The notes: generated from the letters alone by a model not told the origin. A stretch of 49,192 nucleotides of DNA from Nitrospiria bacterium (GCA_919901335.1 CAKKOZ010000088.1:34291-83482); one strand, 5' to 3'. Positions 1 to 31,965 are shown, counted from the stretch's first letter. Program-made: numbers and translations.

Positions 1-82
1 AAAATCCGGCGTGGTGGGGGAGAATCAAGTCCGGGGAGTTCCGGAAATATTACGAAAAAATGTACACGGGACGGGAAGCAAC

Positions 83-922
83 GTGAGGGTATTCGTGACG
101 GGGGGGGAGGGTCAACTGGGCCGGGCCATGGCCTCGACCTTTGCCGGTGATGAGCTCTATCTCGGCCGTCATTCGACGGAGGACATTACCCGCAACGAGA
201 TGATAGAAACCGTCATCCGTTTCAGACCCGATGTGATTGTCCATGCCGCGGCCATGACGGATGTGGATGCCTGTGAATTGAAACCAGACCAGGCATTCCT
301 TGTGAACGAACAGGGCACGCGCCATGTGGCTCAAGCGGCCAAGCAGACCGGTGCCTTGATGGTTTACGTCTCGACCGATTATGTATTCGACGGGACCAAA
401 GAATCACCCTATCTTGAGACGGATCCCACCAACCCCGTCAATGTTTACGGACAGTCCAAGCGGGCCGGGGAGCGGGCAACACAGGAAACGGCGGACCGCT
501 GGCTGATCGTCCGGACCTCATGGGTTTACGGTGAAGGGCGGAAAAATTTCGTGACCAACGTACTGGAATGGGCCAAAACACAGCCGGTCCTCCGATTGGT
601 AAAGGACAAAGTGGGGAGCCCGACATACGCGGTGGATCTGGCCCGGGCGATCCGTCACCTGATCAACGCTGGAGTTTCAAGCAGGACCTTCCATGCCAGC
701 GGCGAAGGGTGCTGTACCTGGGTGGAGTACGGGCAGGAGATTCTGAAGAGGGTCGGTGTTGAAAAAGAAATCGTTCCGATTCTATTCGAGGAACTCAAGC
801 GTCCGGCCCAACGGCCTTCCTATTCGGTCTTGAAGAATGCGCCACTCAATCAAACGGGTTTTACCATGCGTTTATGGAAGCCGGCATTACGGGAGTTCCT
901 TGAGAGTGGGGTCTTGAAGTGA
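83..922 (+). CDS. rfbD: dTDP-4-dehydrorhamnose reductase (RmlD/RfbD)
   Basis: The Rossmann N-terminus VFVTGGEGQLG follows directly after an in-frame GTG at 83. STDYVFDG and the YGQSKRAGE (YxxxK) motif are present. The 11..922 ORF start is probably too far upstream. The stop overlaps the next start (GTGA at 919). Confidence 0.85.
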   Translation: MRVFVTGGEGQLGRAMASTFAGDELYLGRHSTEDITRNEMIETVIRFRPDVIVHAAAMTDVDACELKPDQAFLVNEQGTRHVAQAAKQTGALMVYVSTDYVFDGTKESPYLETDPTNPVNVYGQSKRAGERATQETADRWLIVRTSWVYGEGRKNFVTNVLEWAKTQPVLRLVKDKVGSPTYAVDLARAIRHLINAGVSSRTFHASGEGCCTWVEYGQEILKRVGVEKEIVPILFEELKRPAQRPSYSVLKNAPLNQTGFTMRLWKPALREFLESGVLK

Positions 923-1695
923 TTAATCGCCTGCTCCAGATCTACCGGTACCGCGCACTGATCCAGATCCTGATCATCCGAGAGCTGAAGGCGCGGTATC
1001 GGGGGACCTTCTTGGGTTTTCTCTGGTCCTTTGTAAATCCTCTGGTCCTGATGGCGATCTATGTGCTGGTCTTTTCGATCTATCTGCGAATGGATATGGA
1101 GAATTATCCTGTTTTCCTGCTTTGCGGGATCCTTCCCTGGGCTTGGTTTTCCTCGGGGCTCAGTGAGGCGACACTTTCTATTATCGGGAATGGCAGCCTG
1201 ATCAAAAAGGTCTATCTTCCATCCGAGATCTTTCCTTTAGTCTCTATCGGCTCCAACATGGTGCATTATCTCCTGAGCATACCGATCCTGCTTATTTTCA
1301 TTGTCTCTTTTGGGATGGAACCTTCTTGGCCGCTGCTTTTGTTGCCGCTTATCTTTTTGATTCAGTTTGTTTTCACCTACAGCCTGGCGCTCATCCTGTC
1401 TTCACTGGCGGTGCAGTTTCGGGACCTGCTTCATATTGTGCCGAACTTCTTGATGATCTGGTTCTTCCTGACGCCCATTTTCTATCCCATGACCCTGGTG
1501 CCGGAAAAGTACCGCGCCCTGGTGGACTTCAACCCGATGGCTCAACTGATCATGGCGTACCAGGACATTTTCTTTTATAATCGCATCCCCTCGATACCGG
1601 GCTTGGCGGTATTAACGGGCCTGTCCTGTGTTCTATTGGTCATCGGTTTTTCTCTCTTTGAAGCCCGTAAAGATCTGTTTGCGGAAGAGGTGTAG
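919..1695 (+). CDS. wzm: ABC-2 type polysaccharide/O-antigen export permease (Wzm/TagG-like)
   Basis: 258 aa and polytopic. The N-terminal YRYRALIQILIIRELKARYRGTFLGFLWSFVNPL segment is typical of ABC-2 permeases. It lies directly upstream of the matching ATPase. Confidence 0.8.
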   Translation: MINRLLQIYRYRALIQILIIRELKARYRGTFLGFLWSFVNPLVLMAIYVLVFSIYLRMDMENYPVFLLCGILPWAWFSSGLSEATLSIIGNGSLIKKVYLPSEIFPLVSIGSNMVHYLLSIPILLIFIVSFGMEPSWPLLLLPLIFLIQFVFTYSLALILSSLAVQFRDLLHIVPNFLMIWFFLTPIFYPMTLVPEKYRALVDFNPMAQLIMAYQDIFFYNRIPSIPGLAVLTGLSCVLLVIGFSLFEARKDLFAEEV

Positions 1696-1698
1696 TCT

Positions 1699-2442
1699 GT
1701 GGCGGCGATCGAATTAAAAGGCGTATCCAAGAAGTACCGGAGGCATATCGAGCGGCCGCTGGCCACCACGCTCAAGTCCTATTTCTTGCGTGACCTGTGG
1801 CATCGTCGCGATGACAGCAAGGATGTCATCTGGGCCCTGCACAACGTAGATTTCAAGGTCGGACAAGGGACAACCGTGGGGATTATTGGTCGAAATGGTT
1901 CTGGAAAAAGCACGCTGCTGAAGCTCATCAGCCGGATCCTGAAGCCTGACGTGGGAACGGTGACTGTTCATGGAAAGGTCGCGGCTCTGCTCGAATTAGG
2001 CGCAGGCTTTCATCCCGAACTCACCGGGAGGGAGAACGTCATCATTAACGGGATTATCTTGGGGCTGACCAAAAGTGAGATCAAGTCCAAACTGGATGAG
2101 ATCATTGACTTTGCCGAGCTTCGGGAGTACATTGATGACCCGATCCGGACCTATTCCAGCGGGATGTATATGCGCCTGGGTTTTTCAGTCGCGGTGCATA
2201 TCGACCCCGAGATTCTCCTGATCGATGAGGTTCTTGCCGTGGGCGATGCCGCCTTTACGAGAAAGTGCATGGACCGTATGAACCATTTCAAGAAGGTGGG
2301 GAAAACCATGGTGCTGGTGACCCACGACCTCCGAATGGTCCGATCCTGGTGTGATGAAGGCATCTGGCTGAATAGGGGCGTTGTACAGATGCAAGGGAAT
2401 CCCGGCGACGTGGTCGAGGCCTATGCCAAAGAAACGCTTTAA
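1699..2442 (+). CDS. wzt: Polysaccharide/O-antigen export ABC ATPase (Wzt/TagH-like), short form without a C-terminal carbohydrate-binding domain
   Basis: Walker A is GRNGSGKSTLLKLI, the signature is YSSGMYMRLGF, and Walker B is LLIDEVLAVGD. At 247 aa it is only the nucleotide-binding domain. Confidence 0.85.
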   Translation: MAAIELKGVSKKYRRHIERPLATTLKSYFLRDLWHRRDDSKDVIWALHNVDFKVGQGTTVGIIGRNGSGKSTLLKLISRILKPDVGTVTVHGKVAALLELGAGFHPELTGRENVIINGIILGLTKSEIKSKLDEIIDFAELREYIDDPIRTYSSGMYMRLGFSVAVHIDPEILLIDEVLAVGDAAFTRKCMDRMNHFKKVGKTMVLVTHDLRMVRSWCDEGIWLNRGVVQMQGNPGDVVEAYAKETL

Positions 2443-2830
2443 TTCCGTCGCTGAGAAAGGTTTTACCCTTATCGAAATATTAATCGTTGTCGGCATCATA
2501 GGCCTCATCGCCTCCCTGGTCGTGCCTAATCTCCTGGGCCGATACGAGAGGGCCAAGGGGGAGATCGCGAAGGCCCAGGTGGAGATGCTCTCGTCGGCCG
2601 TTCAGGCCTTCATCCTGGATACGGGAAGATGCCCCAAGTCGCTGACGGACCTGATCCATTCGGACGATTCCAAATGGGAGGGGCCTTATCTTTCAAAAGA
2701 TAGGATCCCCCTGGACCCCTGGAACCGGGATTACCAATACAAATGTCCGGGAGAACATGGCCGCTTTGACATCTATTCCCTGGGGCCAAACAACCGGTTT
2801 GATGAAGAGAGTATAAAGAGCTGGGAATGA
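2423..2830 (+). CDS. gspG: Type II secretion major pseudopilin GspG
   Basis: Prepilin leader and processing site are MPKKRFNSVAEKG/FTLIEILIVVGIIG. The GspG hallmark WEGPYL...LDPWNRDYQYKCPGEHGRFDIYSLGPN is present. ATG at 2423 is preferred over the ORF start at 2381 and overlaps the wzt end by 20 nt. Confidence 0.88.
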   Translation: MPKKRFNSVAEKGFTLIEILIVVGIIGLIASLVVPNLLGRYERAKGEIAKAQVEMLSSAVQAFILDTGRCPKSLTDLIHSDDSKWEGPYLSKDRIPLDPWNRDYQYKCPGEHGRFDIYSLGPNNRFDEESIKSWE

Positions 2831-4512
2831 TGCTCATTGGAGATCTACTCATAAAGCTCTACGGCCTCAAGATCGAAGACATCGACCGGGCCCTGGAGAT
2901 CCAAAAACAAGTCGGGGGCGCCATCGGACAGCTCCTGATCCAGATCGGTTTAATTAATGAAACCCAATTGATTCATGCCCTCTCCGGGCAACTCAAACTC
3001 CCCGTTTACAATCATGAGAACGGCCTTCCCGATGTTGAAGGCCTACGGTCCTACCTGGAGGGAAAAATCGCCATCGACTTTGTCGTCAAGAACAAATTTG
3101 TCCCTGTGAGGATAGACCCTAAAGACCGAAAGGTCACTTTTATAACGAATGACCCGTTGAATAATTCTCTCCTGGATTACCTTGTCAAGTCCATGGACTA
3201 CGATCTGCAAATTCAATTGGCCCCTGAGGAGGTCATCAAGGATATTTCGAAAGCCTATTCTGCGGATTCCGTGGGGGAGACGGTTTCGTTATACATCAAG
3301 GAAACACCGGAGAGACTCAAAGAGATGGCCTTTGAGGCGCCGGTCATTAAATATCTCAACGGCCTCATCAGTCGGGCGGTGGAGTTAAGGGCCTCCGATA
3401 TTCATATTCAACCGTACGGAACGAAATATAAGATCCGGTTCAGAGTCGATGGCGTACTGCATGATACGGACTCGATCCCGGAGGAATTTTATCTTGCTCT
3501 GGTATCAAGGGTCAAGCTTCTTTCGAGCTTGAATATTGCGGAAAAGAGACTGCCTCAGGATGGAAAGTTAAGCACCCGGGTGAGTTCAACCATTCTGGAC
3601 ATCCGGATATCCACCCTCCCCACCGTGGGGGGCGAAGATGTCGTCATGAGGCTTTTATATCGGGAGAGACTCCACTTTGATCTGAGGTCTCTTGGGCAGA
3701 AAGAAGACCACTATCGCATGGCCGGGGATATGCTCTCCAAGCCCTACGGGATGATCCTCGTCACGGGGCCGACCGGTTCAGGAAAGACCACGACCCTTTA
3801 TTCGATGCTCACCTCCCTGAACAATAATGAAAAAAAAATCGTGACCATCGAAGACCCCGTGGAGTATCAGATTGAAGGTCTCAATCAGGTCCAGGTCAAA
3901 ACCGATATCGAATTGACCTTCGCCCATGCCCTCCGGTCCATCTTAAGACACGACCCGGACATCATCATGGTGGGGGAGATCCGCGACGTGGAAACAGCCA
4001 GGATATCCATCCGATCCGCCCTGACAGGCCATCTCGTTTTCTCCACACTCCACACCAATGATGCGCCCAGCAGCCTCTTTAGGTTTTTAGAGATGGGCAT
4101 TGATGACTATTTAATCAACGCCTCTGTGATCGGCATGATGGCCCAGCGGGTTGTTCGAACCAACTGCTCCTTCTGCATCCAGCCGGACCCCCTCCCTCCC
4201 CAGGTCCTGACCCAGTACCGGATCCCTGAGCTCTATGAAAAATTCCGCGACGTGGTGGGGAGCGATATCCAATTCAAAAGAGGGAAGGGATGTCATCGGT
4301 GCGTGGGGACAGGGTATCGAGGGCGGACCGCGATATTTGAGGTGCTGGAATATGACGAAGGCCTGAAGGAGATATTTTTAAAGCAACGATCCCTTGAAGC
4401 GATCCGGGCCTCCCTTCAGTCCCGCCCTGATTTCAGAACGCTCAGAGAGGATGGGATCCTAAAGGTCATCAACGGGTTGACCACCCTGGAAGAAGTTTTG
4501 AGGGTGACCTGA
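2827..4512 (+). CDS. gspE: Type II secretion ATPase GspE
   Basis: 561 aa with a GspE-type N-terminal domain. Walker A is GPTGSGKTTTLYS. VGEIRD and TGHLVFSTLHTN boxes are present, plus the tetracysteine motif CSFC...CHRC. ATGA overlap with gspG. Confidence 0.9.
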   Translation: MMLIGDLLIKLYGLKIEDIDRALEIQKQVGGAIGQLLIQIGLINETQLIHALSGQLKLPVYNHENGLPDVEGLRSYLEGKIAIDFVVKNKFVPVRIDPKDRKVTFITNDPLNNSLLDYLVKSMDYDLQIQLAPEEVIKDISKAYSADSVGETVSLYIKETPERLKEMAFEAPVIKYLNGLISRAVELRASDIHIQPYGTKYKIRFRVDGVLHDTDSIPEEFYLALVSRVKLLSSLNIAEKRLPQDGKLSTRVSSTILDIRISTLPTVGGEDVVMRLLYRERLHFDLRSLGQKEDHYRMAGDMLSKPYGMILVTGPTGSGKTTTLYSMLTSLNNNEKKIVTIEDPVEYQIEGLNQVQVKTDIELTFAHALRSILRHDPDIIMVGEIRDVETARISIRSALTGHLVFSTLHTNDAPSSLFRFLEMGIDDYLINASVIGMMAQRVVRTNCSFCIQPDPLPPQVLTQYRIPELYEKFRDVVGSDIQFKRGKGCHRCVGTGYRGRTAIFEVLEYDEGLKEIFLKQRSLEAIRASLQSRPDFRTLREDGILKVINGLTTLEEVLRVT

Positions 4513-5711
4513 TGGATTATAAATATCGGTGCGTTGATATTTCGGGAAAGGAAGTTCGGGGAGCATTGCCCGCCCTGGACATCGGCGATGCCAAATCCAG
4601 GTTGAAGGCGATGGGACTCATCGCGATTGAGTTGGCTGAAAGAAAGGACCTGTTTGTGAGGGAATACGGAGGTCGGAAAAGGATCACCGATACCGATTTA
4701 TACCATCTCTCGAAGGAATTGAGTGTTCTTTTAAGCGCGAGGATCACGATTGATAAGGCGATGGAGACGCTGATCGCCTCCGTCTCAAACGGAGCCGTCA
4801 AGGCCACGATGCAATATGTGTTAGGTGAAATGAAAGGGGGGAAGCGGTTATCCCAGGCCTTTGAAGAGACCCGGCGTTTCAACCCACTCGTGAATGTCAT
4901 GATCCGGGTCGGTGAGGATGTCGGGGATCTCCGATCGGCCTTCGAGAACATTGCCGAGTACATGCATTTTAAAATACAATTCAAGAACGAGATCCGAAAC
5001 GCAACCACCTATCCTCTTTTCCTGGTCGTCGCCAGCATGGTCACCCTTCTGGTGATCGTTAAATTAATCCTGCCGCGATTTTTCAGCATCTTTGGTCCCG
5101 ACAAGGCGTCGTTGCCCTTTGTGACCAAGGCGCTCTATTCCATCAGTCAATCCATCAATCTCACCAATCTACTGATCCTCCTGGTTCTGATGGGTCTCAT
5201 CGGGTTGGGGCTCCGGCGGATCAATCTCAGGGAGATGTTTCAAAAAGTCTACTCCTACCTGATCTTTATCCCCTTTTTAAAGAACATGATCATTTATCTT
5301 GAGCTGTCGAGGTTTTCCTATGCGATGTATTACATGCTCAAGGGGGGTGTTGAATTCATCCATGCCTTGCGGTTATCAACGGGCCTGATCCAAAACACCC
5401 CGATCCGGGTTGCCGTGGAAAGAACCCTCCCCCCGATTAAAGAAGGGAAAAGCATCGCCGAGGTGTTTTCTTATATCAGTTTCCTGCCCCCGATGATGCC
5501 CGGCATGCTGAGGGCGGGTGAAGCCAGCGGTAATCTGAAGGAGATCTTTTTTGAACTCTACCGTGTCTTTAATGAGCGCTTTACCAATTCCATGAAAAGG
5601 CTGGGCGTCCTTCTGGAACCCGTCATCATCACGATCACGGGGATCGTGATCGGGATCATCGTCATCTCATTGATGCTGACCGTCATGAGCGCCAGCAACA
5701 TCCGGTTATGA
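4512..5711 (+). CDS. gspF: Type II secretion inner-membrane platform protein GspF
   Basis: 399 aa with duplicated GspF/PilC-type cytoplasmic domains and three hydrophobic segments. TGATG overlap with gspE. Confidence 0.85.
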   Translation: MDYKYRCVDISGKEVRGALPALDIGDAKSRLKAMGLIAIELAERKDLFVREYGGRKRITDTDLYHLSKELSVLLSARITIDKAMETLIASVSNGAVKATMQYVLGEMKGGKRLSQAFEETRRFNPLVNVMIRVGEDVGDLRSAFENIAEYMHFKIQFKNEIRNATTYPLFLVVASMVTLLVIVKLILPRFFSIFGPDKASLPFVTKALYSISQSINLTNLLILLVLMGLIGLGLRRINLREMFQKVYSYLIFIPFLKNMIIYLELSRFSYAMYYMLKGGVEFIHALRLSTGLIQNTPIRVAVERTLPPIKEGKSIAEVFSYISFLPPMMPGMLRAGEASGNLKEIFFELYRVFNERFTNSMKRLGVLLEPVIITITGIVIGIIVISLMLTVMSASNIRL

Positions 5712-6100
5712 GAAAGGGGTTCACGCTGATTGAAATCCTGCTGGTGATGACGCTGATCGGGGTGATGTTATCCGTGGTCCTTCCGGTTTCCTATTCGATG
5801 GTCAAGCGCTACCAGGAATCGCTGGAGGCGGAGAAGGTGTTGATGCTCCTTTCGTCTCTAAGAAGGGAATCCTTTCTCTACAGCCGGGAGATGCGGATCG
5901 AAACCCAGGAGGGGGGCTTGATCATGGGGGATCATGAAGAAAAGAGATTCAAGGCCGTCTTTATCCATGCGGACCAACCCATCCTCTTTTATAAAAATGG
6001 GACGAGCTCGGGAGGGCAATTAGGGTTGAGGATGGAGAGCGGTTCCTATCTCATCCAGATCCAGGGCCCCTCGGGCGACATGAAACTCGTCCGACAATGA
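5708..6100 (+). CDS. Minor pseudopilin (GspH-like)
   Basis: N-terminus is MRKG/FTLIEILLVMTLIGVML, a prepilin cleavage/methylation motif with Glu5. 130 aa. ATGA overlap with gspF. The position after gspF and the FYKNGTSSGG segment fit GspH. Confidence 0.6.
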   Translation: MRKGFTLIEILLVMTLIGVMLSVVLPVSYSMVKRYQESLEAEKVLMLLSSLRRESFLYSREMRIETQEGGLIMGDHEEKRFKAVFIHADQPILFYKNGTSSGGQLGLRMESGSYLIQIQGPSGDMKLVRQ

Positions 6101-6107
6101 GAAGGGC

Positions 6108-6536
6108 ATGTTGAAGGGAAACAGGGGATTCCTTCTCATCGATGTCTTGATCGCCGGTCTCATCCTGTCCGCCAGCATTGCGGCAACGATGTATCTCTTC
6201 CGACTTGGCTTCGAACATCTCCAGGACAGGGCCCATGTCTCCAACGCCCTTTCCTCGAAACTACCCCAGTCCCTCAACCTGCTCCAGGTCACCGACCTGG
6301 AGCAAAAACAGGGCGTTGAGGAGATGGGAGGGGGTGTGACACTGGCCTGGGAGTCGGAGATCCTGGCGAGGACAAGGCCCGTGATGGGGACAGGGGAATC
6401 AAGCCTCCCCGGGGCCCATGAACTTTTCCTCTACCAGGTGAATTTTAAGCTCATCTATGGGAGTCATGCCAGGGAGTACGAGCTTCATGCCTTTCGGTAT
6501 AAGACGCTGGGTTCGCCTTCAGAGGGCGTATTCTAA
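6108..6536 (+). CDS. Minor pseudopilin (GspI-like), atypical Asp at position +5
   Basis: MLKGNRG/FLLIDVLIAGLILSASIAA is a prepilin-like hydrophobic N-terminus. 142 aa. Assigned by position in the pseudopilin series. Confidence 0.5.
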   Translation: MLKGNRGFLLIDVLIAGLILSASIAATMYLFRLGFEHLQDRAHVSNALSSKLPQSLNLLQVTDLEQKQGVEEMGGGVTLAWESEILARTRPVMGTGESSLPGAHELFLYQVNFKLIYGSHAREYELHAFRYKTLGSPSEGVF

Positions 6537-7197
6537 AGAAGGGTATACCCTCATCGAGGTCCTCATCGCGACGGCGGTCTTCAGCGCCATGGTCACCCTT
6601 GCCTCCCTGGCGCTCGATCAGGGCCTGAGACAGTACCGGGGGCTCATGGATCGTGGGATCACTTTTTGGGATAACGCCCGGTACCTCTGGATGAATAAAA
6701 GTTTTGCTTCGGCGGTGGATTATTATGTCCATTCCCGGGGGGACGGATGGTTTCCCTACTTCCGGGGCACCCAGGAAATCATCTCGTACGTCTCCGGTTC
6801 CCCCCTGGCGGGAGATCAGCCTGTGATCGTATGGATCCGAAACGAGCGCCAGGAGGACGGCCGTCGCTCGTGGGTCTATTACGAACAGCCGGTTTATGCC
6901 AAGGGACTCGAAGCGATCGAGCGGGACACCCTCTTCGGGGATTTTAAAAAGGGGAATTCGATCACGCTCCTTAAGGATCTCGAAGCCCTGACGGTCTCGT
7001 TCTATGGCTATGATCCCATGAATAAGCAAGCGTCCTGGACCGCCGATTTTGACGGCCGCAAGAGACGGTTCCTCCCCGAGTTGATCAAGGTGGATTATCA
7101 GGACACGGAGGAAAAAGTAAAAAAAACGATGTTATTTGGGATCAAGACCCATTCACCGATGAAGACGGTTTACAACGAGCGATACCCCCATGAATGA
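6487..7197 (+). CDS. Minor pseudopilin (GspJ-like)
   Basis: Contains ...SKEG/YTLIEVLIATAVFSAMVTLA, a prepilin motif with Glu5. The start is uncertain (ATG at 6457, 6466 or 6487). It overlaps the end of the previous gene. Confidence 0.55.
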   Translation: MPFGIRRWVRLQRAYSKEGYTLIEVLIATAVFSAMVTLASLALDQGLRQYRGLMDRGITFWDNARYLWMNKSFASAVDYYVHSRGDGWFPYFRGTQEIISYVSGSPLAGDQPVIVWIRNERQEDGRRSWVYYEQPVYAKGLEAIERDTLFGDFKKGNSITLLKDLEALTVSFYGYDPMNKQASWTADFDGRKRRFLPELIKVDYQDTEEKVKKTMLFGIKTHSPMKTVYNERYPHE

Positions 7198-8101
7198 GAA
7201 ACAGAAGGGCTCGGCGACCCTCCTGACCCTCTTCGTCTCCGCCATGCTTATTACGGTGGGCATTGGGTTCAACGGGATGGTGAAGGAACACCTGAAGGCC
7301 GCAGAGGACTTGAAGGTCAAGACCGAGGCGATGCTCCGTGCGAGGTCGGCCCTGGACACCCTGACGTATCTCCTCCTGAGCGGAAAAAAAACCTCCAGGG
7401 AATATCTCCTTCAAGCGAACGAACGACTTCTGGACCTTCCGAGGATCCCGCTCAACGGTGATCCCGTGACGGTCGAGGGGGAGGTCAAGATCAGCCTCCA
7501 GGACAGCCACGGGCTGCTCTCATTGACCTCCTTAAACGAATCCGCCGTAAAGCGGCTGATCGAACAGGTGTCGGGCGAAAATGCAGGCGGGATCATGGCG
7601 GGTTATCTGGATTGGACGGACCGCGACCGGTTGATCCGGGTGAATGGGGCGGAAGAATCCTACTACCATTCCGTCGGGTTTCCATACGAGCCGAGAAACT
7701 ATCCCATCCAGTACAAAGAGGAGATGGCCCTGATCAAGGGGATGACGAAAGAGCTGTATCAAAAAATCGAACCCTCCATCACGCTCCTTCCTTCGTTGGG
7801 TTTTAATCCCAATACCGCCTCGGAGGCTGTTTTAAGGGCCTATCTCAATATTGACACGGATGCCGCGAGAGGGCTGAAAGAGGCCATCGCTCAAAGACCC
7901 ATCCTATCCGATATCGAGTTATTTGCCCTGACGGGAAGACAAATCGCGACGGATGAAGGGGTCTATTTTTACCCCTCTCGCTGGATGGAGCTCACCCTTC
8001 AAAGCGGGGCTCCCGATCCGGTTTATACGATTCATGTGGGGATGGATACCCGTCCAACCCTCCGGGCCCCCTACACCCTCGTCTACTGGAGGGAGGAATA
8101 G
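7190..8101 (+). CDS. gspK: Minor pseudopilin GspK-like
   Basis: Hydrophobic N-terminus GSATLLTLFVSAMLITVG without Glu5, as in GspK. GspK-like segments YYHSVGFPYEPRNYPIQYKEEMALIKGM and GFNPNTASEAVLRAYL are present. Confidence 0.65.
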   Translation: MNEKQKGSATLLTLFVSAMLITVGIGFNGMVKEHLKAAEDLKVKTEAMLRARSALDTLTYLLLSGKKTSREYLLQANERLLDLPRIPLNGDPVTVEGEVKISLQDSHGLLSLTSLNESAVKRLIEQVSGENAGGIMAGYLDWTDRDRLIRVNGAEESYYHSVGFPYEPRNYPIQYKEEMALIKGMTKELYQKIEPSITLLPSLGFNPNTASEAVLRAYLNIDTDAARGLKEAIAQRPILSDIELFALTGRQIATDEGVYFYPSRWMELTLQSGAPDPVYTIHVGMDTRPTLRAPYTLVYWREE

Positions 8102-8103
8102 GC

Positions 8104-9261
8104 GTGCTCGTATCCTACTGGCATAAAGACGGCATGGAGGTCTACCGCGTGAAAGACGCCGGGATCGAGACGGTGGCCTCCGGCCGGTTGGATGCCATTC
8201 GGCCCTTCACCGGATGGGGTCGAAAGGTCATGATCGTGGGGCGGGATCGCCTTTTGTGGACGAGAAAGAGGTATCCTCCCACGACAGGAGAAAACCTCGC
8301 GAAGGCCATTCAGATGGATCTTAAAGAACTCTTCCCCCTAAAAGACCCGGCCTTCTCCTTCCGGATCTTCGAGCAGACCCCCGCCTACAGCCTTGTGGAT
8401 ATATGGACATGGGATCGCTCGGACCACCCCGCGATCCGGAAGATTTTTCCGTGGAGCCACATCGTGCCCGAGGATGCGGCGTTCGTCTCCGACGAGTCCG
8501 AGATCAGGGTCCTTGACGATCCGAATGGGCGCCATCTCATGGCACACAACAAAGATGGATTTCTCGGTCGGTTATCCCTAAGGCATCTCACCGGGAAAGA
8601 CGTGGAGCTGTTTTTAAGAAGCCTCGGGAAACACGGCCGGGAGATCAAAACGATAAGACTTCAAACGGCTCCGGGCGAATTAGAGCTCAGCGAAACGATA
8701 CCGGTCGTCCATGAACCGCCGGGGGAATACCCTCCCTGTCTGAAGGACATCCGGCGACTGAACCTCAAGCCCTTTCGATCGGCCCCGGTCATGTCGATGA
8801 TCGCCGCGGTTGATTTCGTGCCGAGGCTGGTTCTCTATCTGATGATCGTCTATGCGGCCTCCCTCTACATCACCCAGGGTCGTTACGACCGAACGATTCA
8901 GGAAACCTCCCAGAGACTCGACGGCCTGACAAAGACGCTCTCGGCCGCAAGCCTGGAGGAAAGCGACCCCTCCGCCCGTACCCTGGCAGAACTTCAAGAA
9001 AGGCGGAAATCCAGGGTGGAGCCCCTCGAGATCATGAACGCACTGGCGAGGAGCCTTCGAGCGCAAAGCGCCGTGACCCGGATGGTCTTGAATGAAAACA
9101 GCCTCGAACTTTCCATCGCCTCAAAGGAGCCTTTAGAGGTCATCCGGGGCCTTTCAACGGCGAATTGCGTTCAGTCGGTAAAGCTAAGGGGAAGCCCGTT
9201 TCAAGGCGAGGGAAACGTCTATAACTTCCTGCTTACATTGGAGCTGAAGCCGTGCAGTTAA
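8104..9261 (+). CDS. T2SS assembly protein, GspL-like (PilM/PilN-type architecture)
   Basis: 385 aa: a cytoplasmic domain of about 230 aa, one TM segment (VPRLVLYLMIVYAASLYI), then a coiled-coil plus small periplasmic domain. GTG start is preceded by GGGAGG. The call rests on architecture and position only. Confidence 0.5.
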   Translation: MLVSYWHKDGMEVYRVKDAGIETVASGRLDAIRPFTGWGRKVMIVGRDRLLWTRKRYPPTTGENLAKAIQMDLKELFPLKDPAFSFRIFEQTPAYSLVDIWTWDRSDHPAIRKIFPWSHIVPEDAAFVSDESEIRVLDDPNGRHLMAHNKDGFLGRLSLRHLTGKDVELFLRSLGKHGREIKTIRLQTAPGELELSETIPVVHEPPGEYPPCLKDIRRLNLKPFRSAPVMSMIAAVDFVPRLVLYLMIVYAASLYITQGRYDRTIQETSQRLDGLTKTLSAASLEESDPSARTLAELQERRKSRVEPLEIMNALARSLRAQSAVTRMVLNENSLELSIASKEPLEVIRGLSTANCVQSVKLRGSPFQGEGNVYNFLLTLELKPCS

Positions 9262-12318: not shown

Positions 12319-12340
12319 CAGAGGGATACCGATAAAAAAC

Positions 12341-25754: not shown

Positions 25755-26732
25755 GTGTTAACGGTGGAGCCATATCTCTCGGTTTCTGTGGTAATTCCCG
25801 CATGGAACTCCAGAGAAACAATTGGGTCCTGTATTAAATCCTTTATTTCACAATTATACCGTCCGTGTGAAATTATCGTAGTAAACGACGGTTCGACGGA
25901 TGATACTGCTAATGTAGCAGCATCATTTTCATCCTGTGATTTGCCAGTCAGGTTAATTTCGCTGAATGTTAACTCCGGGCCTGCCCATGCAAGGAACGTC
26001 GGAATTCGATCCGCCAAGGGAGAGGTGATCTGTTTTGCTGAAGCGGATGGAATCTACGGTATTACGTATCTAAGCAGAACAATAACGGCTCTTAAGCTTA
26101 CCGGTGAAAAGATTTATTCCGGTGGCATCTTGAAGATCTGCTGGAGAAAGGATGAACATTGGGCGGCTTTCTGGAATGCAATTTTTGAAGCTCGTTGGCA
26201 TCTTATTATGACAGGTCAAATACCACCAAGAGGGGGATGGGTGTTTTACAAAAAATCCTTGGAAGATGTCGGTTATTATGACGAATCTTTAAGGCAAGGT
26301 GAAGATACGGAACTGATACTTCGTTTGAATCGTAACGGCTATAAGCCTAGTTTGGCTTTCAGAGTCTTCTTTTATCATATGGAACCACAATCGATTCGAG
26401 ATGTCTGGAAGAGGTTTTTTAAGGCTGGGGCAGGAGGTCTATCTTATAGGATGAGTCGTGGCAGTTTACTGCAAGACAGCTTTTTGTCCTGTGTGATTGT
26501 TGTGTGCTTAATTCTGTTTCCTGTTAATCTGATAATGATACCGGTTGTGGTGATGACTAATCGAGAAAGTCGAGTTGGGTGGATAAGATTGCTTCGAAAG
26601 GTCAGAAGAGGGCAGATTACGATGGGCCAAGCCGTCCTCTTTCCATTTCGCTATTTCTATGTAAAATTGGCCGTTGCTTGCGGCTTGATTTATGGACTGT
26701 TCAAAAGAAGCTATCAAATGGATTGGACATAA
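25755..26732 (+). CDS. GT2 glycosyltransferase with two C-terminal TM helices (GtrB/ArnC-like architecture), low-GC gene
   Basis: VSVVIPAWNSRETI...IIVVNDGSTDDT. C-terminal hydrophobic segments are FLSCVIVVCLILFPVNLIMIPVVVM and VLFPFRYFYVKLAVACGLIYGLF. GTG start. Hand counts give 43-45% GC. Confidence 0.7.
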   Translation: MLTVEPYLSVSVVIPAWNSRETIGSCIKSFISQLYRPCEIIVVNDGSTDDTANVAASFSSCDLPVRLISLNVNSGPAHARNVGIRSAKGEVICFAEADGIYGITYLSRTITALKLTGEKIYSGGILKICWRKDEHWAAFWNAIFEARWHLIMTGQIPPRGGWVFYKKSLEDVGYYDESLRQGEDTELILRLNRNGYKPSLAFRVFFYHMEPQSIRDVWKRFFKAGAGGLSYRMSRGSLLQDSFLSCVIVVCLILFPVNLIMIPVVVMTNRESRVGWIRLLRKVRRGQITMGQAVLFPFRYFYVKLAVACGLIYGLFKRSYQMDWT

Positions 26733-26735
26733 ATC

Positions 26736-28232
26736 ATGCTCAGGCAGGTCATCGAGATATCATCCGGGAGCAGCCTTGGCAAGCTTTTGGGATTATTCCG
26801 TGAGATTTTGTTCGCCTCTTTTTTTGGCACAACGTCTACGGCAGACGCTTACCGCGCTGCCTTTACGACCACTCTTTCGTCAAATCTCCTCATCAGCGAA
26901 ACCCTCGCCTCAGCCTTTGTCCCCCTATTCCGGCAGGACCGGGAAACCAATGCGCGGCGGGCTTGGTCCCTGTTCAACGGACTGGGAGTTTTACTAATCC
27001 TTCTTTCGATCGCGATTGGGGCGGTTCTCTATGTCGGGGCCTGGACTTGGGTTACATGGATTTTCCCGGGTTTTTCCGGTGAACGGCTTGAATTGACGGT
27101 TTATATGCTCCAGGTGATGGCAATAGGGATGCCGTTTTATACTGCGTCGTCCATTCTGATCAATCTGATGATGGCAGCTTCTGATTTCCATCTGACGTCT
27201 ATCCGCGCCTTTGTGCAAAATATTGGGGTGATCATCGCGCTCATCATCGCGTTCCTATGGGGGCGACCGGTCTGGATTGCATGGGGGTTTACGGGCACTT
27301 ATCTTATTTTTTTTGTTTACGGAATTGGTTGGCTTCTAAAAAGTGGAATCTTGGAATCTGGTTGGTATCGGCATTGGGTGGATCTCAGGTCTGTGGCGAA
27401 ACGGTTCTGGACCGCGGTAAGGCCGCTGGCGTTTCTTTCGGTCTTGGTGCAGGGGAACATCCTTCTTGAAAAGGCAATCGCCTCGCTGATCGGCCCCGGA
27501 GCGGTTGCGACGATCGACTACGCACGATTGATTCCGGAAACGATGCAGGTCCTGGTGGTCGTGCCGATCGGCCTGGTCAGCCTGGCCGCCATGGGGAACT
27601 TTAAAGACGAGGAAGTTCGCGAGCGGACGGACCGGATATCCGCCATGATTTTGCTCGTGCTTATCCCTTTAAGCGGTTTTGTGCTGGTGGCGGCGCCGAG
27701 CCTCATCCGGCTGCTTTACGCCAGAGGGGCGTTCGATGAAGCTTCCGTGATTCAGACCTCACAGGCGCTCCGTGGAATGGCGGTCGGGATGTGGGCCTTC
27801 TGTCTCGCATACGTGCTGCAAAAGATCTACAATGCCCGGATGAGGAACCGCGAGGTGCTTCGCATCGCGGGCATCGCCGTTCTGGCCAATGCGATCTTCA
27901 ATCTCGTCTTCTACCGGCATCTCGGCCTCCTGGCGATCGGTCTGGGATTCAGTTTGGGGGGAATCGTGATGACCTGGTTTTATGTGCGGGGAATGGGCGG
28001 ACTTGATCGGACGCGGCAGATCGCCTGGATGACCCTTCTGGCAGCAGCCCCTTATGCCTTGATCGGGTTTCTGCTGAGTCAGTACGGCTCCGTTCCTCTT
28101 TTGGATCTGTCCGTACAGATCGTGTGGGCCGTTATCTTTTGGTTCACCGTGCTCGGGTCGTTTCCCTTATCCCGCCAACTGCTGCGGCAGTTCTCAAAAC
28201 GGCTGATCTCGGTAAGGACGCCGGACCCATGA
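26736..28232 (+). CDS. MurJ/MviN-family (MOP superfamily) lipid-linked glycan flippase
   Basis: 498 aa and polytopic. The N-terminal GKLLGLFREILFASFFGTTSTADAYRAAF matches the MurJ signature region. Confidence 0.7.
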   Translation: MLRQVIEISSGSSLGKLLGLFREILFASFFGTTSTADAYRAAFTTTLSSNLLISETLASAFVPLFRQDRETNARRAWSLFNGLGVLLILLSIAIGAVLYVGAWTWVTWIFPGFSGERLELTVYMLQVMAIGMPFYTASSILINLMMAASDFHLTSIRAFVQNIGVIIALIIAFLWGRPVWIAWGFTGTYLIFFVYGIGWLLKSGILESGWYRHWVDLRSVAKRFWTAVRPLAFLSVLVQGNILLEKAIASLIGPGAVATIDYARLIPETMQVLVVVPIGLVSLAAMGNFKDEEVRERTDRISAMILLVLIPLSGFVLVAAPSLIRLLYARGAFDEASVIQTSQALRGMAVGMWAFCLAYVLQKIYNARMRNREVLRIAGIAVLANAIFNLVFYRHLGLLAIGLGFSLGGIVMTWFYVRGMGGLDRTRQIAWMTLLAAAPYALIGFLLSQYGSVPLLDLSVQIVWAVIFWFTVLGSFPLSRQLLRQFSKRLISVRTPDP

Positions 28233-29416
28233 AGGATATGTCGAAAGACGTTATTCTTTTCTCCACGGCGGATTGGGACAATCCGTTCTGGACCAACAAG
28301 CAGCACATGGCGGTCGGGTTGGCCGGGCATGGGTTCCGGATCTTCTATGTGGAATCCCTTGGGCTCCGAAAACTTACCATGACCTGGAGGGATATCTTCC
28401 GGATCATGAAACGGCTCAAGAAGGGGATGGGCGGTTTCCGAGAGGTTCAAAAAAATATCTACGTGTATTCTCCCCTGGTTTTGCCGATCCATGGAATCTC
28501 TTCGATCCGGCGGATGAATGCCGGAATCCTGCGGGCCCAGATCCGGCGGCATCTGACCCGGCTTCATTTTCGTGAACCCATCTTCTGGACCTACAATCCA
28601 CTTACGGCGACTTTCGCCGGCGAATTTAACGAAGCCCTTCTTGTTTACCACTGCGTGGATGACCTGTCCGCCTCTCCAGGAATGCCGGTGGGGGTGATCA
28701 CGGCGGCAGAGGAACAGCTGGTCCGAAAAGCAGACCTGGTATTCACAACAAATCCAAACCTGCAGGAGACGCGCTCACGTTGGAATCCGGCGAACACACA
28801 CTACTTTCCGAATGTGGCGGACTTTGACCACTTCTCCAAAGCCCGGAGACCCTGGCCCATTCCCCATGACATCGAGAATATCCCGAAGCCCCGGATTGGG
28901 TTTGTGGGGGCGATCAGCGACTATAAAGTGGATTTTGAGTTGATTTCTCACATCGCAGAGGTCCGACCCGACTGGCACTGGGTTCTCATCGGACAGGTTG
29001 GGGAAGGGCAGATCGGAACCTCGATCGACTCATTGCTCCGACCCAATATCCATCTGCTGGGGCCGAAGTCTTATCAGATCTTGCCGGATTACCTTAGAGG
29101 GTTTGATGTGGCTGTTCTGCCTATACAGAAAAACAATTATACTGCCTCCATGTTTCCAATGAAATTTTTCGAGTACTTGGCATCGGGAAGAACGGTGGTG
29201 GCCACGGATCTGCCTGCGCTGCGGGAGTACGCAGATGCTTGTATCATCACCCATACCCCGGAAGGGTTCATCCAAGGAATTGAGGATGTCCTCCATGGAA
29301 AGGTCCCGGACCCGAAACGGTGTCTGGAGCTGGCCCAACAACATACCTGGGAAAAGCGTCTCGACTGGATGATGGAGTTGCTGGTCAAGACATGGGAACA
29401 AAAGCATGGATCTTAA
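28229..29416 (+). CDS. GT-B fold glycosyltransferase (group 1 / TuaH-like)
   Basis: The ATG at 28229 overlaps the murJ-like stop (ATGA). Segments include ILFSTADWDNPFWTNKQHMA and a C-terminal FPMKFFEYLASGRTVVATDLPALRE (EX7E-like region). Confidence 0.7.
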   Translation: MKDMSKDVILFSTADWDNPFWTNKQHMAVGLAGHGFRIFYVESLGLRKLTMTWRDIFRIMKRLKKGMGGFREVQKNIYVYSPLVLPIHGISSIRRMNAGILRAQIRRHLTRLHFREPIFWTYNPLTATFAGEFNEALLVYHCVDDLSASPGMPVGVITAAEEQLVRKADLVFTTNPNLQETRSRWNPANTHYFPNVADFDHFSKARRPWPIPHDIENIPKPRIGFVGAISDYKVDFELISHIAEVRPDWHWVLIGQVGEGQIGTSIDSLLRPNIHLLGPKSYQILPDYLRGFDVAVLPIQKNNYTASMFPMKFFEYLASGRTVVATDLPALREYADACIITHTPEGFIQGIEDVLHGKVPDPKRCLELAQQHTWEKRLDWMMELLVKTWEQKHGS

Positions 29417-30569
29417 GGTCGCTTTGATCCATGACTGGCTGACCGGGATGCGGGGCGGGGAGCGATGCCTGGAGGTCTTTTGCGAATTATTTCCCGATGC
29501 CGATCTCTTTACCCTGCTTCATCATCCAGGGACGGTTTCACCCATGATCGAAAAGCATTTGATCCGCACGAGCCTCATCCAGCGCCTGCCGTTCTCCCGG
29601 CGGGCCTATCGTTACTACCTTCCGATTTTTCCGCGGGCCATTGAATCATTCGATCTTTCCGGGTATGATTTGGTTCTCAGCTCAAGCCACTGTGTGGCCA
29701 AGGGGGTTCGTGTTCCATCCAACGCGTGTCATATTAGTTACCTCCATACGCCGATGCGTTATATCTGGGACCAGTACGAGCATTACTTTGGAAAAGGACG
29801 TGCCGGTCGGCCGGTTCAAAGCATGATGCGCTTTCTCCGCCCTCGGTTACAACGTTGGGATGTTAGATCAAACGGCAGTGTCTACGCCTTCATTGCCAAC
29901 TCTCGTCACGTGGCGGAGCGGATTAAAAAATACTACGGGAGGACGGCCGAGGTGATCTACCCTCCGGTGGATTTTCAGGCCTTTTCTTCATCGAACCGGG
30001 ACGATGGATTCTATCTCATGGTGACTGCCTTCGCCCCTTACAAGCGGGTGGATCTGGCGGTTGAGGCCTTCAACCGGTTAAAGCGCCCTCTCAAGATCGT
30101 CGGCGCGGGCCAGGATGAAAAGCGCCTTCGAGCGATCGCCGGCCCCACCGTTGAATTCTTAGGATGGCGACCCGATTTCGAAATTCGGGAACTGTATGCC
30201 TCCTGCCGCGCCCTGATCTTTCCGGGCGAGGAAGATTTCGGGATCGTTCCATTGGAGGCGATGGCGTGTGGAAAACCGGTGATCGCCTACGGGAAGGGCG
30301 GGGCCCTGGAAACCGTGGTTCCATTACGGACGTCACGACCCGGCGGTCCAAAGCCGGAGGAGGCGGACCCTACCGGCCTGTTTTTTTATGAACAGACTCC
30401 GGAGGCATTGATCGAGGCGGTCCGTCTTTTTGAGGCCCATCGTGACCGGTTTGACCCGGTTCGGATCCGGGAGCATGTGAAGCCGTTCGACCGCACGAAT
30501 TTCAGAGAGAAGATCTTTCGTTACGTCCGGATGAAGCATCAGGAGTTCAGCGAGAGCCGTCATGCTTAA
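29406..30569 (+). CDS. GT4 family glycosyltransferase
   Basis: Begins MDLKVALIHDWLTGMRGGERCLEV. The C-terminal EDFGIVPLEAMACGKPVIAYGKGGALETV is a GT4 EX7E motif. It overlaps the previous gene by 11 nt. Confidence 0.8.
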   Translation: MDLKVALIHDWLTGMRGGERCLEVFCELFPDADLFTLLHHPGTVSPMIEKHLIRTSLIQRLPFSRRAYRYYLPIFPRAIESFDLSGYDLVLSSSHCVAKGVRVPSNACHISYLHTPMRYIWDQYEHYFGKGRAGRPVQSMMRFLRPRLQRWDVRSNGSVYAFIANSRHVAERIKKYYGRTAEVIYPPVDFQAFSSSNRDDGFYLMVTAFAPYKRVDLAVEAFNRLKRPLKIVGAGQDEKRLRAIAGPTVEFLGWRPDFEIRELYASCRALIFPGEEDFGIVPLEAMACGKPVIAYGKGGALETVVPLRTSRPGGPKPEEADPTGLFFYEQTPEALIEAVRLFEAHRDRFDPVRIREHVKPFDRTNFREKIFRYVRMKHQEFSESRHA

Positions 30570-31965
30570 AAAACACGGCGATTTTTTTAAATCCCTCTTT
30601 TTCATCATGGATCTGCTCCTGATTTCCGCGGCCTGGTTGTCGGCTTATGCGCTGCGTTTTTATACGGATCTGATCCCCGTGACGAAGGGGGTTCCTTTTT
30701 TTTGGTCCTACCTTACTCTGCTGCCCGGGGTCCTGATCATCTGGGGAATCGTCTTTAAAGCTTTCGATCTCTATCGTCCCCGTCGCATCTCCACCCATCT
30801 CTCGGAAGTCTGGGACATGACGAAGGCCTGCAGCCTGGCGACGCTCATGGTCGTCGCTTTGAGTTTCTTTTTAAGGCAGTTTGAATATTCACGGTTGGTT
30901 TTGATTCTCTTCTGGGGTTTGAGCATCGTGTTCATGACCCTCAGTCGCTGGACGTCCCGCGAGATCCTCCGGTTTCTTCGTAAAAAGGGATACAACCAAC
31001 GGTATGCGCTGATCGTCGGCGCCGGAACGTTGGGTCAGGAGTTGGCGGCCAAGCTCCATCGCCACCGCGAGTTAGGCGTGCGAGTGATCGGCTACCTGAC
31101 CCGCAAGCGGGAAAAGGTCGGGCAGGAGCTCCGAGAGATCAAGGTGCTGGGCAGCTATGATGAACTTCCGGAGATCCTTGCAAGCCATCCGGTGGACCAG
31201 ATCTTTCTGGCGCTTCCGCATGAGGCATACACCCATGCTGAAAAGATCATCCGGTACCTTCAAGATCAGACGGTGGACGTCCGGATCGTTCCGGACCTGC
31301 TCCAGTTCATGACGATCGGAGGACAGGCTGAGCTGTTCGAAGGGCTGCCGATCGTTACGCTGCAGGCCACGCCGTTGTACGGCTGGAACCGGATCATCAA
31401 ACGCGCCGCCGATACATTCCTGTCGGTCTTTATGCTACTGCTGATCTCTCCGTTGATGCTGCTGATCGCGATCCTGATCAAATGGGTATCACCCGGGCCG
31501 GTCCTGTACCGTCAGAAGCGGATGGGTTACGACGGCTGCGTCTTCGAGATGCTGAAATTTCGCACCATGCGGGTGAACGCGGAGGAGGAGACGGGCGCCG
31601 TCTGGGCCCGGCCCGACGATCCGCGGCGCACCCTGTTGGGGAGTTTTCTACGCCGGACCAGCCTGGACGAGCTGCCGCAGTTCTGGAACGTGCTCAAAGG
31701 GGAGATGAGCATTGTGGGCCCGAGGCCGGAGCGCCCGGAGTTCGTCGCAAAATTCCGTGAGACGATCCCGAAATACATGCTTCGGCACAAGATCAAGGCC
31801 GGTATAACGGGCTGGGCTCAGGTCAAGGGGCTGCGTGGGAACACCTCACTGGAGGAACGGATCAAATACGATCTTGAGTATATCGAGAGATGGTCGCTCG
31901 GATTGGACATCAAGATCATGTGGCTGACGCTTTGGAAGGGGCTCATTAATAAAAATGCCTACTAA
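30562..31965 (+). CDS. Undecaprenyl-phosphate hexose-1-phosphate transferase (WbaP/WcaJ-type initiating enzyme)
   Basis: 467 aa. It has N-terminal TM helices, a Rossmann-like linker (LIVGAGTLGQELA), and a catalytic domain KRAADTFLSVFMLLLISPLML...LKFRTM...DELPQFWNVLKGEMSIVGPRPERPEF. Confidence 0.85.
   Translation: MLKKHGDFFKSLFFIMDLLLISAAWLSAYALRFYTDLIPVTKGVPFFWSYLTLLPGVLIIWGIVFKAFDLYRPRRISTHLSEVWDMTKACSLATLMVVALSFFLRQFEYSRLVLILFWGLSIVFMTLSRWTSREILRFLRKKGYNQRYALIVGAGTLGQELAAKLHRHRELGVRVIGYLTRKREKVGQELREIKVLGSYDELPEILASHPVDQIFLALPHEAYTHAEKIIRYLQDQTVDVRIVPDLLQFMTIGGQAELFEGLPIVTLQATPLYGWNRIIKRAADTFLSVFMLLLISPLMLLIAILIKWVSPGPVLYRQKRMGYDGCVFEMLKFRTMRVNAEEETGAVWARPDDPRRTLLGSFLRRTSLDELPQFWNVLKGEMSIVGPRPERPEFVAKFRETIPKYMLRHKIKAGITGWAQVKGLRGNTSLEERIKYDLEYIERWSLGLDIKIMWLTLWKGLINKNAY

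Follow-up and report, generated by a model that had tools for sequence, protein, structure and literature searches.

In this study, we analysed a stretch of 49,192 nucleotides (nt) from a Nitrospiria bacterium (GCA_919901335.1, CAKKOZ010000088.1:34291-83482), called the window in its full length, which holds rml and wzm/wzt genes, a type II secretion system (T2SS) block, a gene for a protein of 512 amino acids (aa) and a region of glycan genes. We consider it somewhat probable that this locus is a surface-layer (S-layer) biogenesis island, combining a T2SS-secreted lattice protein with a co-encoded glycan tether. A first-pass annotation had proposed the gene map from the sequence itself; it was checked by an open reading frame (ORF) list of the window followed by family scans against Pfam and NCBIfam, which bore it out from rmlD to the secretin gene and beyond. 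Homologous loci and proteins are cited by handles (L003, P0013 and so on).

Gene organization of the locus

The following genes were assigned up to and including the gene for the 512-aa protein (window positions, strand, assignment and basis):

1-86 (+), rmlB 3′ end (dTDP-glucose 4,6-dehydratase); the gene 5′ of rmlD in L003 matches TIGR01181 with 443.9 bits
83-922 (+), rmlD (dTDP-4-dehydrorhamnose reductase), gene-caller start at 95; PF04321, E 3e-89
919-1695 (+), wzm, ABC-2 permease of the polysaccharide exporter; PF01061, GTGA overlap with rmlD
1699-2442 (+), wzt, exporter ATPase; PF00005
2423-2830 (+), gspG, major pseudopilin; PF08334, TIGR01710 with 108.9 bits (above cut-off), 20-nt overlap with wzt
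2827-4512 (+), gspE, secretion ATPase; PF00437, E 2.8e-129
4512-5711 (+), gspF, inner-membrane platform protein; PF00482, E 2.5e-40
5708-6100, 6108-6536 and 6457-7197 (+), minor pseudopilin genes in the H, I and J positions; N_methyl motifs, weak GspH/I/J matches
7190-8101 (+), gspK; PF21687, E 1.4e-17
8104-9261 (+), gene in the gspL position; by position only, no family match
9252-9797 (+), GspM/PilO-like gene; weak matches (NF040576 GspM 29 bits, PilO E 0.0012)
9794-10294 (+), gene for a 166-aa membrane-anchored protein; no family match
10324-12318 (+), gspD, secretin, last T2SS gene; PF00263 and PF03958, TIGR02517 with 337.5 bits
12656-14194 (+), candidate S-layer subunit of 512 aa, distant Slr4 relative; transitive homology, expression signals and composition

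The T2SS block (2423-12318) thus comprises eleven genes in the order G-E-F-H-I-J-K-L-M-X-D. Its core parts GspD, GspE, GspF and GspG are all present by Pfam (Secretin, Secretin_N, T2SSE, T2SSF, T2SSG), the secretin scoring just under the TIGR02517 equivalog cut-off of 351 bits. The products in the H, I and J positions have G/FTLIE-type N-termini, and the boundary between gspI and gspJ is uncertain. The three genes at 8104-9261, 9252-9797 and 9794-10294 occur in the same order in L006, L007, L010, L014 and L036. GspC and the prepilin peptidase GspO were not found among the window ORFs by the Pfam and NCBIfam scans and are perhaps encoded elsewhere in the genome. The earlier description of a complete T2SS stands for D, E, F, G and K and is slightly too strong, because L and M are assigned by position and weak scores and because neither GspC nor a prepilin peptidase is encoded in the window.

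The rmlB/rmlD, wzm/wzt and T2SS genes adjoin one another closely: neighbours either overlap or are separated by no more than 29 nt. The junction strings given in the first-pass annotation were read again in the sequence (GTGA at 919, ATGA at 2827, TGATG at 4512, ATGA at 5708 and at 9794), as was the 20-nt wzt/gspG overlap; the upper limit of 12 nt stated there for all gaps does not hold for gspD, where the first standard start codon, TTG at 10324, leaves a gap of 29 nt. A start at CTG 10291 would overlap the preceding gene, and the true start of gspD may be such an upstream non-standard codon. The secretin N-terminus encoded at 10324-10370 reads LGILLLSGCAG and contains a lipobox-like motif (LLLSGC), so the gspD product may be a lipoprotein secretin that requires no pilotin.

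The order rmlB-rmlD-wzm-wzt-gspG-gspE is shared by L003-L005, which are short contigs obtained for this organism in three further sequencing runs; in them, the rmlD product is called with 275 aa. Since rmlB lies directly 5′ of rmlD in these contigs, the cluster begins upstream of the window. An assembly artefact as the origin of the wzt/gspG fusion was ruled out, because the junction is identical in these three independent assemblies. Wzt is of the short form lacking a C-terminal carbohydrate-binding domain, and in NCBIfam it matches teichoic-acid and galactan Wzt/RfbE exporter ATPases best.

The 512-aa protein and its relation to Slr4

Read by eye, the N-terminus of the 512-aa protein is a Sec signal peptide, MKANTVFRKGWMAVVGIVAVGLMAGSAFA/G, with cleavage probably after AFA at residue 29. 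The mature protein (48 kDa, isoelectric point 4.9) consists to 61% of Ala, Thr, Val, Ser and Gly, with Ser or Thr making up 25%. Charged residues account for 11% of it versus 20-29% in the soluble proteins of the window, and Wzm alone is as low (11.6%). The low-charge composition rich in these five residues had been pointed out before and was found again here.

The protein is 100% identical in sequence to a 'hypothetical protein' from a Nitrospirota metagenome-assembled genome. Direct searches of Pfam (E ≤0.001), NCBIfam and PDB sequences gave no match for it. Sixteen relatives were obtained from a set of 5.8 billion proteins, and a profile search of 1.84 billion representatives yielded 163 clusters; 98 full-length family members were examined. 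The matches listed in a profile search of the 5.8-billion-protein set were all unnamed metagenomic proteins, with no named Slr4 or VapA sequence, and cluster look-ups likewise yielded no names. The Slr4 family PF19526 is matched by 23 of these 98, with a best E of 5.9e-30; the relatives P0013, P0014 and P0015 reach 41-50 bits at a cut-off of 25. An hhalign comparison of the window subfamily with the Slr4-positive members runs end to end over 462 columns with a probability of 100% and an E of 1.3e-64. Within the window subfamily, three members were re-scanned and none reaches PF19526, while P0010 bears a precomputed PF19526 tag. Given the Slr4 matches of the relatives and the full-length profile-profile alignment, we assign the 512-aa protein to the Slr4 superfamily as a remote member, on transitive and not on direct evidence. 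Slr4 being an experimentally verified S-layer family, this homology supports the earlier proposal of a candidate S-layer subunit, and judged from sequence such a role is credible.

The AlphaFold model of the protein is an all-beta chain of immunoglobulin (Ig)-like sandwiches (predicted local distance difference test score, pLDDT, 79; predicted template modelling score 0.73). A variable all-beta N-terminal and middle part is followed by a conserved C-terminal domain of about 130 aa, which reached a pLDDT of 85 when modelled separately. The last ~110 residues are by far the best-conserved stretch within the family: mean column identity is 0.63-0.76 over residues 401-512 versus 0.33-0.54 across the remaining mature protein. 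The C-terminal domain was also considered as a recognisable carbohydrate-binding module, an assignment that was dropped for want of structural support, the Foldseek search with its model being blank at E <0.01.

Conservation at the N-terminus is also high. The signal-peptide core GLMAGSAFA is nearly invariant among relatives with only 35-40% overall identity, and residues 1-40, i.e. the signal peptide and the first ~10 mature residues, exceed in conservation most of the mature sequence that precedes the C-terminal domain. For a signal peptide (residues 1-30, window 12656-12745) this is unusual. Two of the four cysteines, C257 and C322, are nearly invariant in the subfamily.

Expression signals of the 512-aa gene

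The gene for the 512-aa protein is equipped with the following signals:

12341-12369 and 12451-12480 (+), two tandem sigma-70-like promoter sites with 11/12 and 10/12 matches, both with an extended -10 TG
12642-12648 (+), Shine-Dalgarno sequence AAGGAGG, 7 nt 5′ of the ATG, read directly
14211-14251 (+), intrinsic terminator, a G+C-rich hairpin followed by T8; free energy -27.6 kcal/mol, z -3.56

The two promoter-like sites are the top two in positions 1-20000, and the 512-aa gene alone among the window genes has such a strong tandem pair. The promoter scan, the AAGGAGG motif and the terminator energy confirm what had been noted as a combination unique to this gene: a promoter pair, a strong Shine-Dalgarno sequence and a strong terminator. 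The RNA fold of the 5′ leader was not significant (z 0.49), and an Rfam scan of it gave no match.

Short tandem direct repeats lie in the promoter and leader region (12581-12615 and 12395-12422): TCATTCAGAGAARAC is present in two copies 20 nt apart, and GCGGGRCCCAAAAR in two directly adjoining copies. A regulator could bind at these repeats. An open frame of 47 codons (12516-12659, +) was also read by eye; it starts with GTG at 12516, 1 nt after an AAGGAGG motif, and stops at a TGA overlapping the ATG of the 512-aa gene (ATGA). This frame is probably due to chance, because the spacing of the ribosome-binding motif is too short.

Glycan genes downstream of the 512-aa gene

The glycan region of ~18 kb 3′ of the 512-aa gene contains eleven co-oriented glycan-related genes up to position 32728:

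14280-17909 (+), fusion of a pyruvyltransferase, two GT2, a methyltransferase and a coiled coil, 1209 aa; family scans
17899-21822 (+), fusion of a GT2, a WsaF-type rhamnosyltransferase and a methyltransferase, 1307 aa; PF22772, PF21374
21792-23678 (+), double GT2; family scans, 43% identity in L008
23798-24799 (+), GT2; family scans, 41% identity in L008
24807-25643 (+), methyltransferase; family scans
25755-26732 (+), GT2; family scans
26736-28232 (+), MurJ-like (MOP family) lipid-linked glycan flippase; PF03023, E 6.8e-46, TIGR01695 with 170 bits (cut-off 235)
28124-29416 (+), GT4 glycosyltransferase, TuaH-like; family scans
29406-30569 (+), GT4 glycosyltransferase; family scans
30562-31965 (+), polyprenyl-phosphate hexose-1-phosphate transferase, initiating enzyme; PF02397, TIGR03023 with 521.5 bits (cut-off 410.75)
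31955-32728 (+), DUF3108 gene; PF11306, E 1.3e-40, 11-nt overlap with the initiating-enzyme gene

The GT2 domains of the 1209-aa fusion are chondroitin-synthase-like, and the 1307-aa fusion matches WsaF in the PDB (2x0d) with an E of 3.6e-42. Glycosyltransferases, methyltransferases and a flippase had been announced for this region and are present; the initiating enzyme, described as WbaP-type, scores best as a glucose-1-phosphate transferase of the WcaJ type, and the block continues past 31965 to 32728. The DUF3108 gene there is probably the last of the co-oriented block and, because of its overlap with the initiating-enzyme gene, probably co-expressed with the glycan genes. An assignment of the flippase gene as housekeeping MurJ was rejected, its TIGR01695 score lying under the equivalog cut-off.

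In ABC-transporter O-antigen pathways (Escherichia coli O9a WbdD, Klebsiella WbbB), a coiled-coil terminating modification enzyme is typical of chain-length control. By analogy, the coiled-coil/methyltransferase fusion may be read as a chain-terminating, length-controlling enzyme. Between 21 and 27 kb, where the double GT2, the next GT2, the methyltransferase and a further GT2 are encoded, the G+C content falls to 0.44-0.49 from ~0.55, suggesting lateral exchange of a cassette in this part of the glycan region.

For enzymes attaching or polymerising a glycan, 46 window ORFs, all but two on the plus strand, were scanned against Pfam, and all six frames were searched for membrane spans. None of the 46 matches Wzy_C, and the membrane-span scan yields no other candidate, so that no WaaL, Wzy, PglL, PglB or WsaB-type protein was found in any frame of the window. 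ORFs with at least four predicted spans are limited to Wzm, the flippase, the phosphotransferase, an MFS transporter and a 243-aa ORF far outside the locus. The caveat of the first-pass annotation, namely that an oligosaccharyltransferase or ligase is missing from the window, is hence borne out by both scans.

Synteny in related loci

Related loci were collected from gene-position-index contexts, a genome-collection scan (3 loci) and a metagenome scan (38 loci, most too short for synteny), and all window proteins were compared with every locus by tblastn. A T2SS of like composition adjoins the homologous gene in 10 of the 15 lineages with enough flanking DNA, namely the window, L006, L007 (convergent), L009, the L010/L047/L048 group, L014, L036, L049, L050 and L051. 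Since a T2SS cluster occupies well under 1% of a genome, this adjacency is far beyond chance. wzm/wzt are adjacent in four lineages (window, L006, L008, L009), and a polysaccharide pyruvyltransferase, alone or fused to GT2, is located within ~6 kb downstream in seven (window, L001, L006, L008, the L010 group, L030, L043).

The fusion encoded at 14280-17909 is, by sequence, the best-conserved neighbour of the subunit gene. Its pyruvyltransferase and two GT2 domains (the first ~790-880 residues) show 55-68% identity in L001, L006 and L008, versus 33-40% for the subunit between the same loci. In relatives, wzm, wzt and the pyruvyltransferase-GT2 fusion are contiguous; in the window the T2SS-subunit block lies between wzt and the fusion, an arrangement that recalls the insertion seen in Aeromonas.

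Lineages labelled Nitrospirota, Desulfobacterium and Proteobacteria, as well as unassigned metagenome contigs, show this combination again with its parts in permuted order; the titled genome records are Desulfobacterium sp. N47, a 'Proteobacteria' metagenome-assembled genome (MAG) and a 'Clostridia' MAG. The search for this gene order that had been recommended thus showed that the genes for subunit, T2SS, Wzm/Wzt and glycan enzymes are also linked in relatives belonging to other phyla. The idea that secretion system, subunit and glycan are inherited as one module holds as a tendency, given the frequency of the T2SS adjacency and the recurrence across phyla; five lineages without the T2SS depart from it.

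Some related loci carry further genes. In L007 (1-11380), the Slr4-like gene starts 29 nt after a gene for a Maf-type (Maf_flag10_N / MptE-like) glycosyltransferase, 5′ of which nonulosonic-acid genes (NeuB, DegT, CMP-sugar synthetase) are located, and no flagellin gene was seen in the 21 kb covered. These genes hint that some family members, or their glycan partner, may bear sialic-acid-like sugars. A lytic transglycosylase (SLT) gene precedes the secretin gene in L006 (6639-7265), L049 (3911-4663) and L051 (3178-3768), and a DsbC-like thioredoxin gene stands between the secretin and Slr4-like genes in L049 (7257-8063) and L051 (5909-6709); the window has neither. L010 (CAZWBN010000019.1, 'uncultured Clostridia bacterium') encodes the same T2SS with secretin together with a protein that has only the conserved C-terminal domain of the family; its label is explained either by faulty binning or by a Firmicute host that possesses an outer membrane.

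Comparison with known systems

The closest layout is that of the Aeromonas A-layer loci, published by Merino et al. (2015) as rml-wzm-(T2SS-vapA)-wzt-glycosyltransferases. In A. hydrophila AH-1, the central part of the rml/wzm/wzt O11-antigen cluster is taken up by spsE-M, a 166-aa orf2, spsD and vapA, and in A. salmonicida A450 spsE and the genes following it, hypothetical genes and vapA lie between wzm and wzt (PMC4413209, PMC4483657). In both species the O-antigen is kept in vapA mutants and lost in wzt or glycosyltransferase mutants, and the A-layer is described as tethered to lipopolysaccharide (LPS) (PMC4413209, PMC4483657). As in the window, the dedicated T2SS block has rml genes and a Wzm/Wzt exporter beside it, ends with the secretin gene and is followed straight by the S-layer structural gene and then by glycosyltransferases, all on one strand. 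The sps block, too, lacks GspC and a prepilin peptidase gene, and both A. hydrophila and the window have an ORF of 166 aa between the M gene and the secretin gene.

The two differ in several points. The T2SS-vapA block is inserted between wzm and wzt in A450, and in AH-1 it comes after a truncated wzm and before complete copies of wzm and wzt, whereas the window block follows wzt with the 20-nt overlap. The T2SS order begins E-F-G in Aeromonas and G-E-F in the window, and the glycan enzymes of the window (pyruvyltransferase fusion, WsaF-type fusion, MOP flippase, WcaJ-type initiator) are unlike those of Aeromonas. The hosts belong to Nitrospirota and Gammaproteobacteria, respectively, and the likeness is one of gene layout.

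Slr4 forms the square S-layer lattice of Pseudoalteromonas tunicata, as established by proteomics, gene deletion and electron microscopy (Ali et al. 2020, PMC7821379). The window subunit shares with it, besides the remote homology, a Sec signal peptide, a size of ~50-59 kDa (PMC7821379; PF19526) and a T2SS operon (G, E, F, K, D and others) immediately upstream (PMC7821379). Slr4 has been reported in one phylum, mostly Gammaproteobacteria, and in marine metagenomes only, whereas the branch of the window occurs in Nitrospirota, Desulfobacterium and others; linked glycan genes are not mentioned for Slr4, and 'glycosyl' does not occur, in the text of PMC7821379 that was searched. NpdA of Paracidovorax citrulli is a further S-layer protein whose gene is located beside a T2SS cluster, here of 12 genes and conserved across classes (PMC10765051); this likeness is again one of gene arrangement, and the searched text of PMC10765051 reports no glycan cluster. 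The slr4 and npdA genes adjoin T2SS operons thought to be dedicated to them (PMC7821379, PMC10765051).

With the S-layer glycosylation (slg) cluster of Geobacillus stearothermophilus NRS 2004/3a, the window shares rml, wzm/wzt and a WsaF-type rhamnosyltransferase (PMC2943079, PMC3898925), as well as a methyltransferase-glycosyltransferase fusion and a WbaP-family initiator beside an S-layer gene. It differs in the missing WsaB-type (Wzy_C) oligosaccharyltransferase, in a host with an outer membrane and a T2SS, in additional pyruvyltransferase and coiled-coil domains, and in an initiator that scores as transferring Glc-1-P (WcaJ) and not Gal-1-P. The Wzy_C-type oligosaccharyltransferase (WsaB/WsfB) is the enzyme that makes slg a protein-glycosylation system (PMC2943079). 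The slg analogy drawn in the first-pass annotation therefore extends to the enzyme set (WsaF-like, methyltransferase-glycosyltransferase, phosphotransferase) and stops at protein glycosylation, the defining enzyme being absent from the window. The SLH/CsaB-pyruvylated polymer systems also link a surface-layer gene to a polysaccharide pyruvyltransferase (PMC6030368), a resemblance only: an SLH domain is missing from the window protein, and export of the polymer would proceed through Wzm/Wzt in an outer-membrane host.

The claim that the combined arrangement had not been described is wrong in view of the Aeromonas T2SS and vapA genes inside an rml/wzm/wzt cluster (PMC4413209, PMC4483657). The layout is already known from there, and the locus is a new example in a new phylum with no new machinery. 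New are the phylum, the extension of the Slr4 superfamily far past the marine Gammaproteobacteria in which it was defined, the direct wzt/gspG overlap and the recurrent pyruvyltransferase neighbour. A narrow literature search found no paper joining S-layer, Nitrospirota and type II secretion.

Proposed function of the locus

In the proposed route, the 512-aa protein would be a divergent S-layer protein of the Slr4 superfamily, made in large amounts from its own strong promoters. It would pass the inner membrane via Sec with removal of the signal peptide, and the outer membrane via the dedicated T2SS encoded directly upstream; that an abundant lattice protein of the Slr4 type takes this route, first Sec and then the T2SS, appears likely to us. 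On undecaprenyl phosphate, the flanking genes (rmlB/D, the WcaJ-type initiator, the pyruvyltransferase-GT2-methyltransferase-coiled-coil fusion and the WsaF-type fusion) would serve to assemble a polysaccharide that contains rhamnose and is methylated and probably pyruvylated, and Wzm/Wzt would export it. The polymer would most likely be an O-antigen-like surface chain that holds the protein lattice non-covalently, on the model of the LPS O-antigen with Aeromonas VapA and Caulobacter RsaA, and the conserved C-terminal domain of the subunit would be the best candidate for the glycan-binding part. We regard a tethering role for this probably pyruvylated, methyl-capped, rhamnose-containing polymer as evenly balanced. 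The recurrence of the Aeromonas layout across phyla argues that the lattice protein and a specific surface glycan are functionally coupled.

Several observations weigh against this interpretation. The homology to Slr4 is transitive, and the 512-aa protein itself does not match PF19526 even at E ≤5. With the full model, Foldseek found no more than generic Ig-like adhesin domains at template modelling scores of 0.2-0.28, with the C-terminal domain model it found nothing below the threshold given above, and none of the solved S-layer structures resembles either model. Five of the 15 lineages with enough flank have no adjacent T2SS (L001, L016, L019, L027, L037), and about half of the related lineages have no pyruvyltransferase nearby. 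The distal half of the glycan genes (MOP flippase, GT4s, phosphotransferase) may make a separate polymer, since the G+C dip could mark it as a separate or recently exchanged cassette, and attachment of the glycan to lipid A-core is assumed, as the window encodes no WaaL.

One alternative is a glycoprotein of the slg type, in which a polysaccharide made on a lipid carrier would be exported by Wzm/Wzt and, once in the periplasm, joined by a covalent bond to Ser, Thr or Tyr of the 512-aa protein, which the T2SS would then secrete. The WsaF homologue, methyltransferase-glycosyltransferase fusions, rml, wzm/wzt and initiating phosphotransferase do mirror the Geobacillus cluster (PMC2943079), Ser or Thr accounts for a quarter of the mature protein, and the Maf-type glycosyltransferase and nonulosonic-acid genes of L007 lie just 5′ of a homologous gene. 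The window, however, encodes no Wzy_C-type, PglL-like or PglB-like protein, its few ORFs with at least four spans offer no oligosaccharyltransferase candidate, and in Aeromonas, the precedent for this layout, LPS O-antigen is the glycan and its attachment to the protein is not reported. We therefore regard covalent glycosylation as unlikely, and non-covalent tethering of the layer to the polysaccharide as the more likely arrangement.

The 512-aa protein could also be another abundant T2SS cargo, such as an adhesin or biofilm-matrix protein, next to genes for an ordinary O-antigen or exopolysaccharide. This would agree with the best structural matches, which are Ig-like domains of the Gram-positive adhesins PrgB, SspB C123 and SdrD, with the lack of a direct Slr4 match and with the finding that Slr4 itself is a major component of the biofilm matrix (PMC7821379). 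Full-length profile-profile homology to Slr4-positive proteins speaks against it, as do size, composition and expression signals typical of S-layer proteins and the conserved association with a T2SS of its own, seen also for VapA, Slr4 and NpdA, so that we hold it to be quite improbable. A chance neighbourhood of functionally independent T2SS, 512-aa and polysaccharide genes, for which the mosaic nature of surface-polysaccharide loci, the G+C dip and the five relatives without a T2SS beside the gene could be cited, is already disfavoured and very improbable in view of the same combination recurring, permuted, across differently labelled lineages and metagenome contigs and of the wzt/gspG overlap.

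Returning to a T2SS-secreted, glycan-tethered lattice, a more specific version can be put forward tentatively, although we think it doubtful: the window protein may represent an undescribed, widespread Slr4 branch of anaerobic or uncultured outer-membrane bacteria (Nitrospirota, Desulfobacterota and others) that is anchored via its ~130-aa C-terminal domain to a pyruvylated, Wzm/Wzt-exported polysaccharide. If true, this would be an SLH-independent, outer-membrane counterpart of the Gram-positive S-layer anchoring by pyruvylated polymers. The repeated pyruvyltransferase link is a testable lead as to how S-layers without SLH domains are held on the outer membrane, and the locus provides a concrete candidate subunit, export route and likely glycan partner for metaproteomics or heterologous work.

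Other features of the window

Near the window end, a full-length cobalamin riboswitch (RF00174; 48446-48615, +) was detected by Rfam with 106.9 bits and an E of 6.9e-26. It has no relation to the S-layer island and is located downstream of the ORF at 47742-48404.

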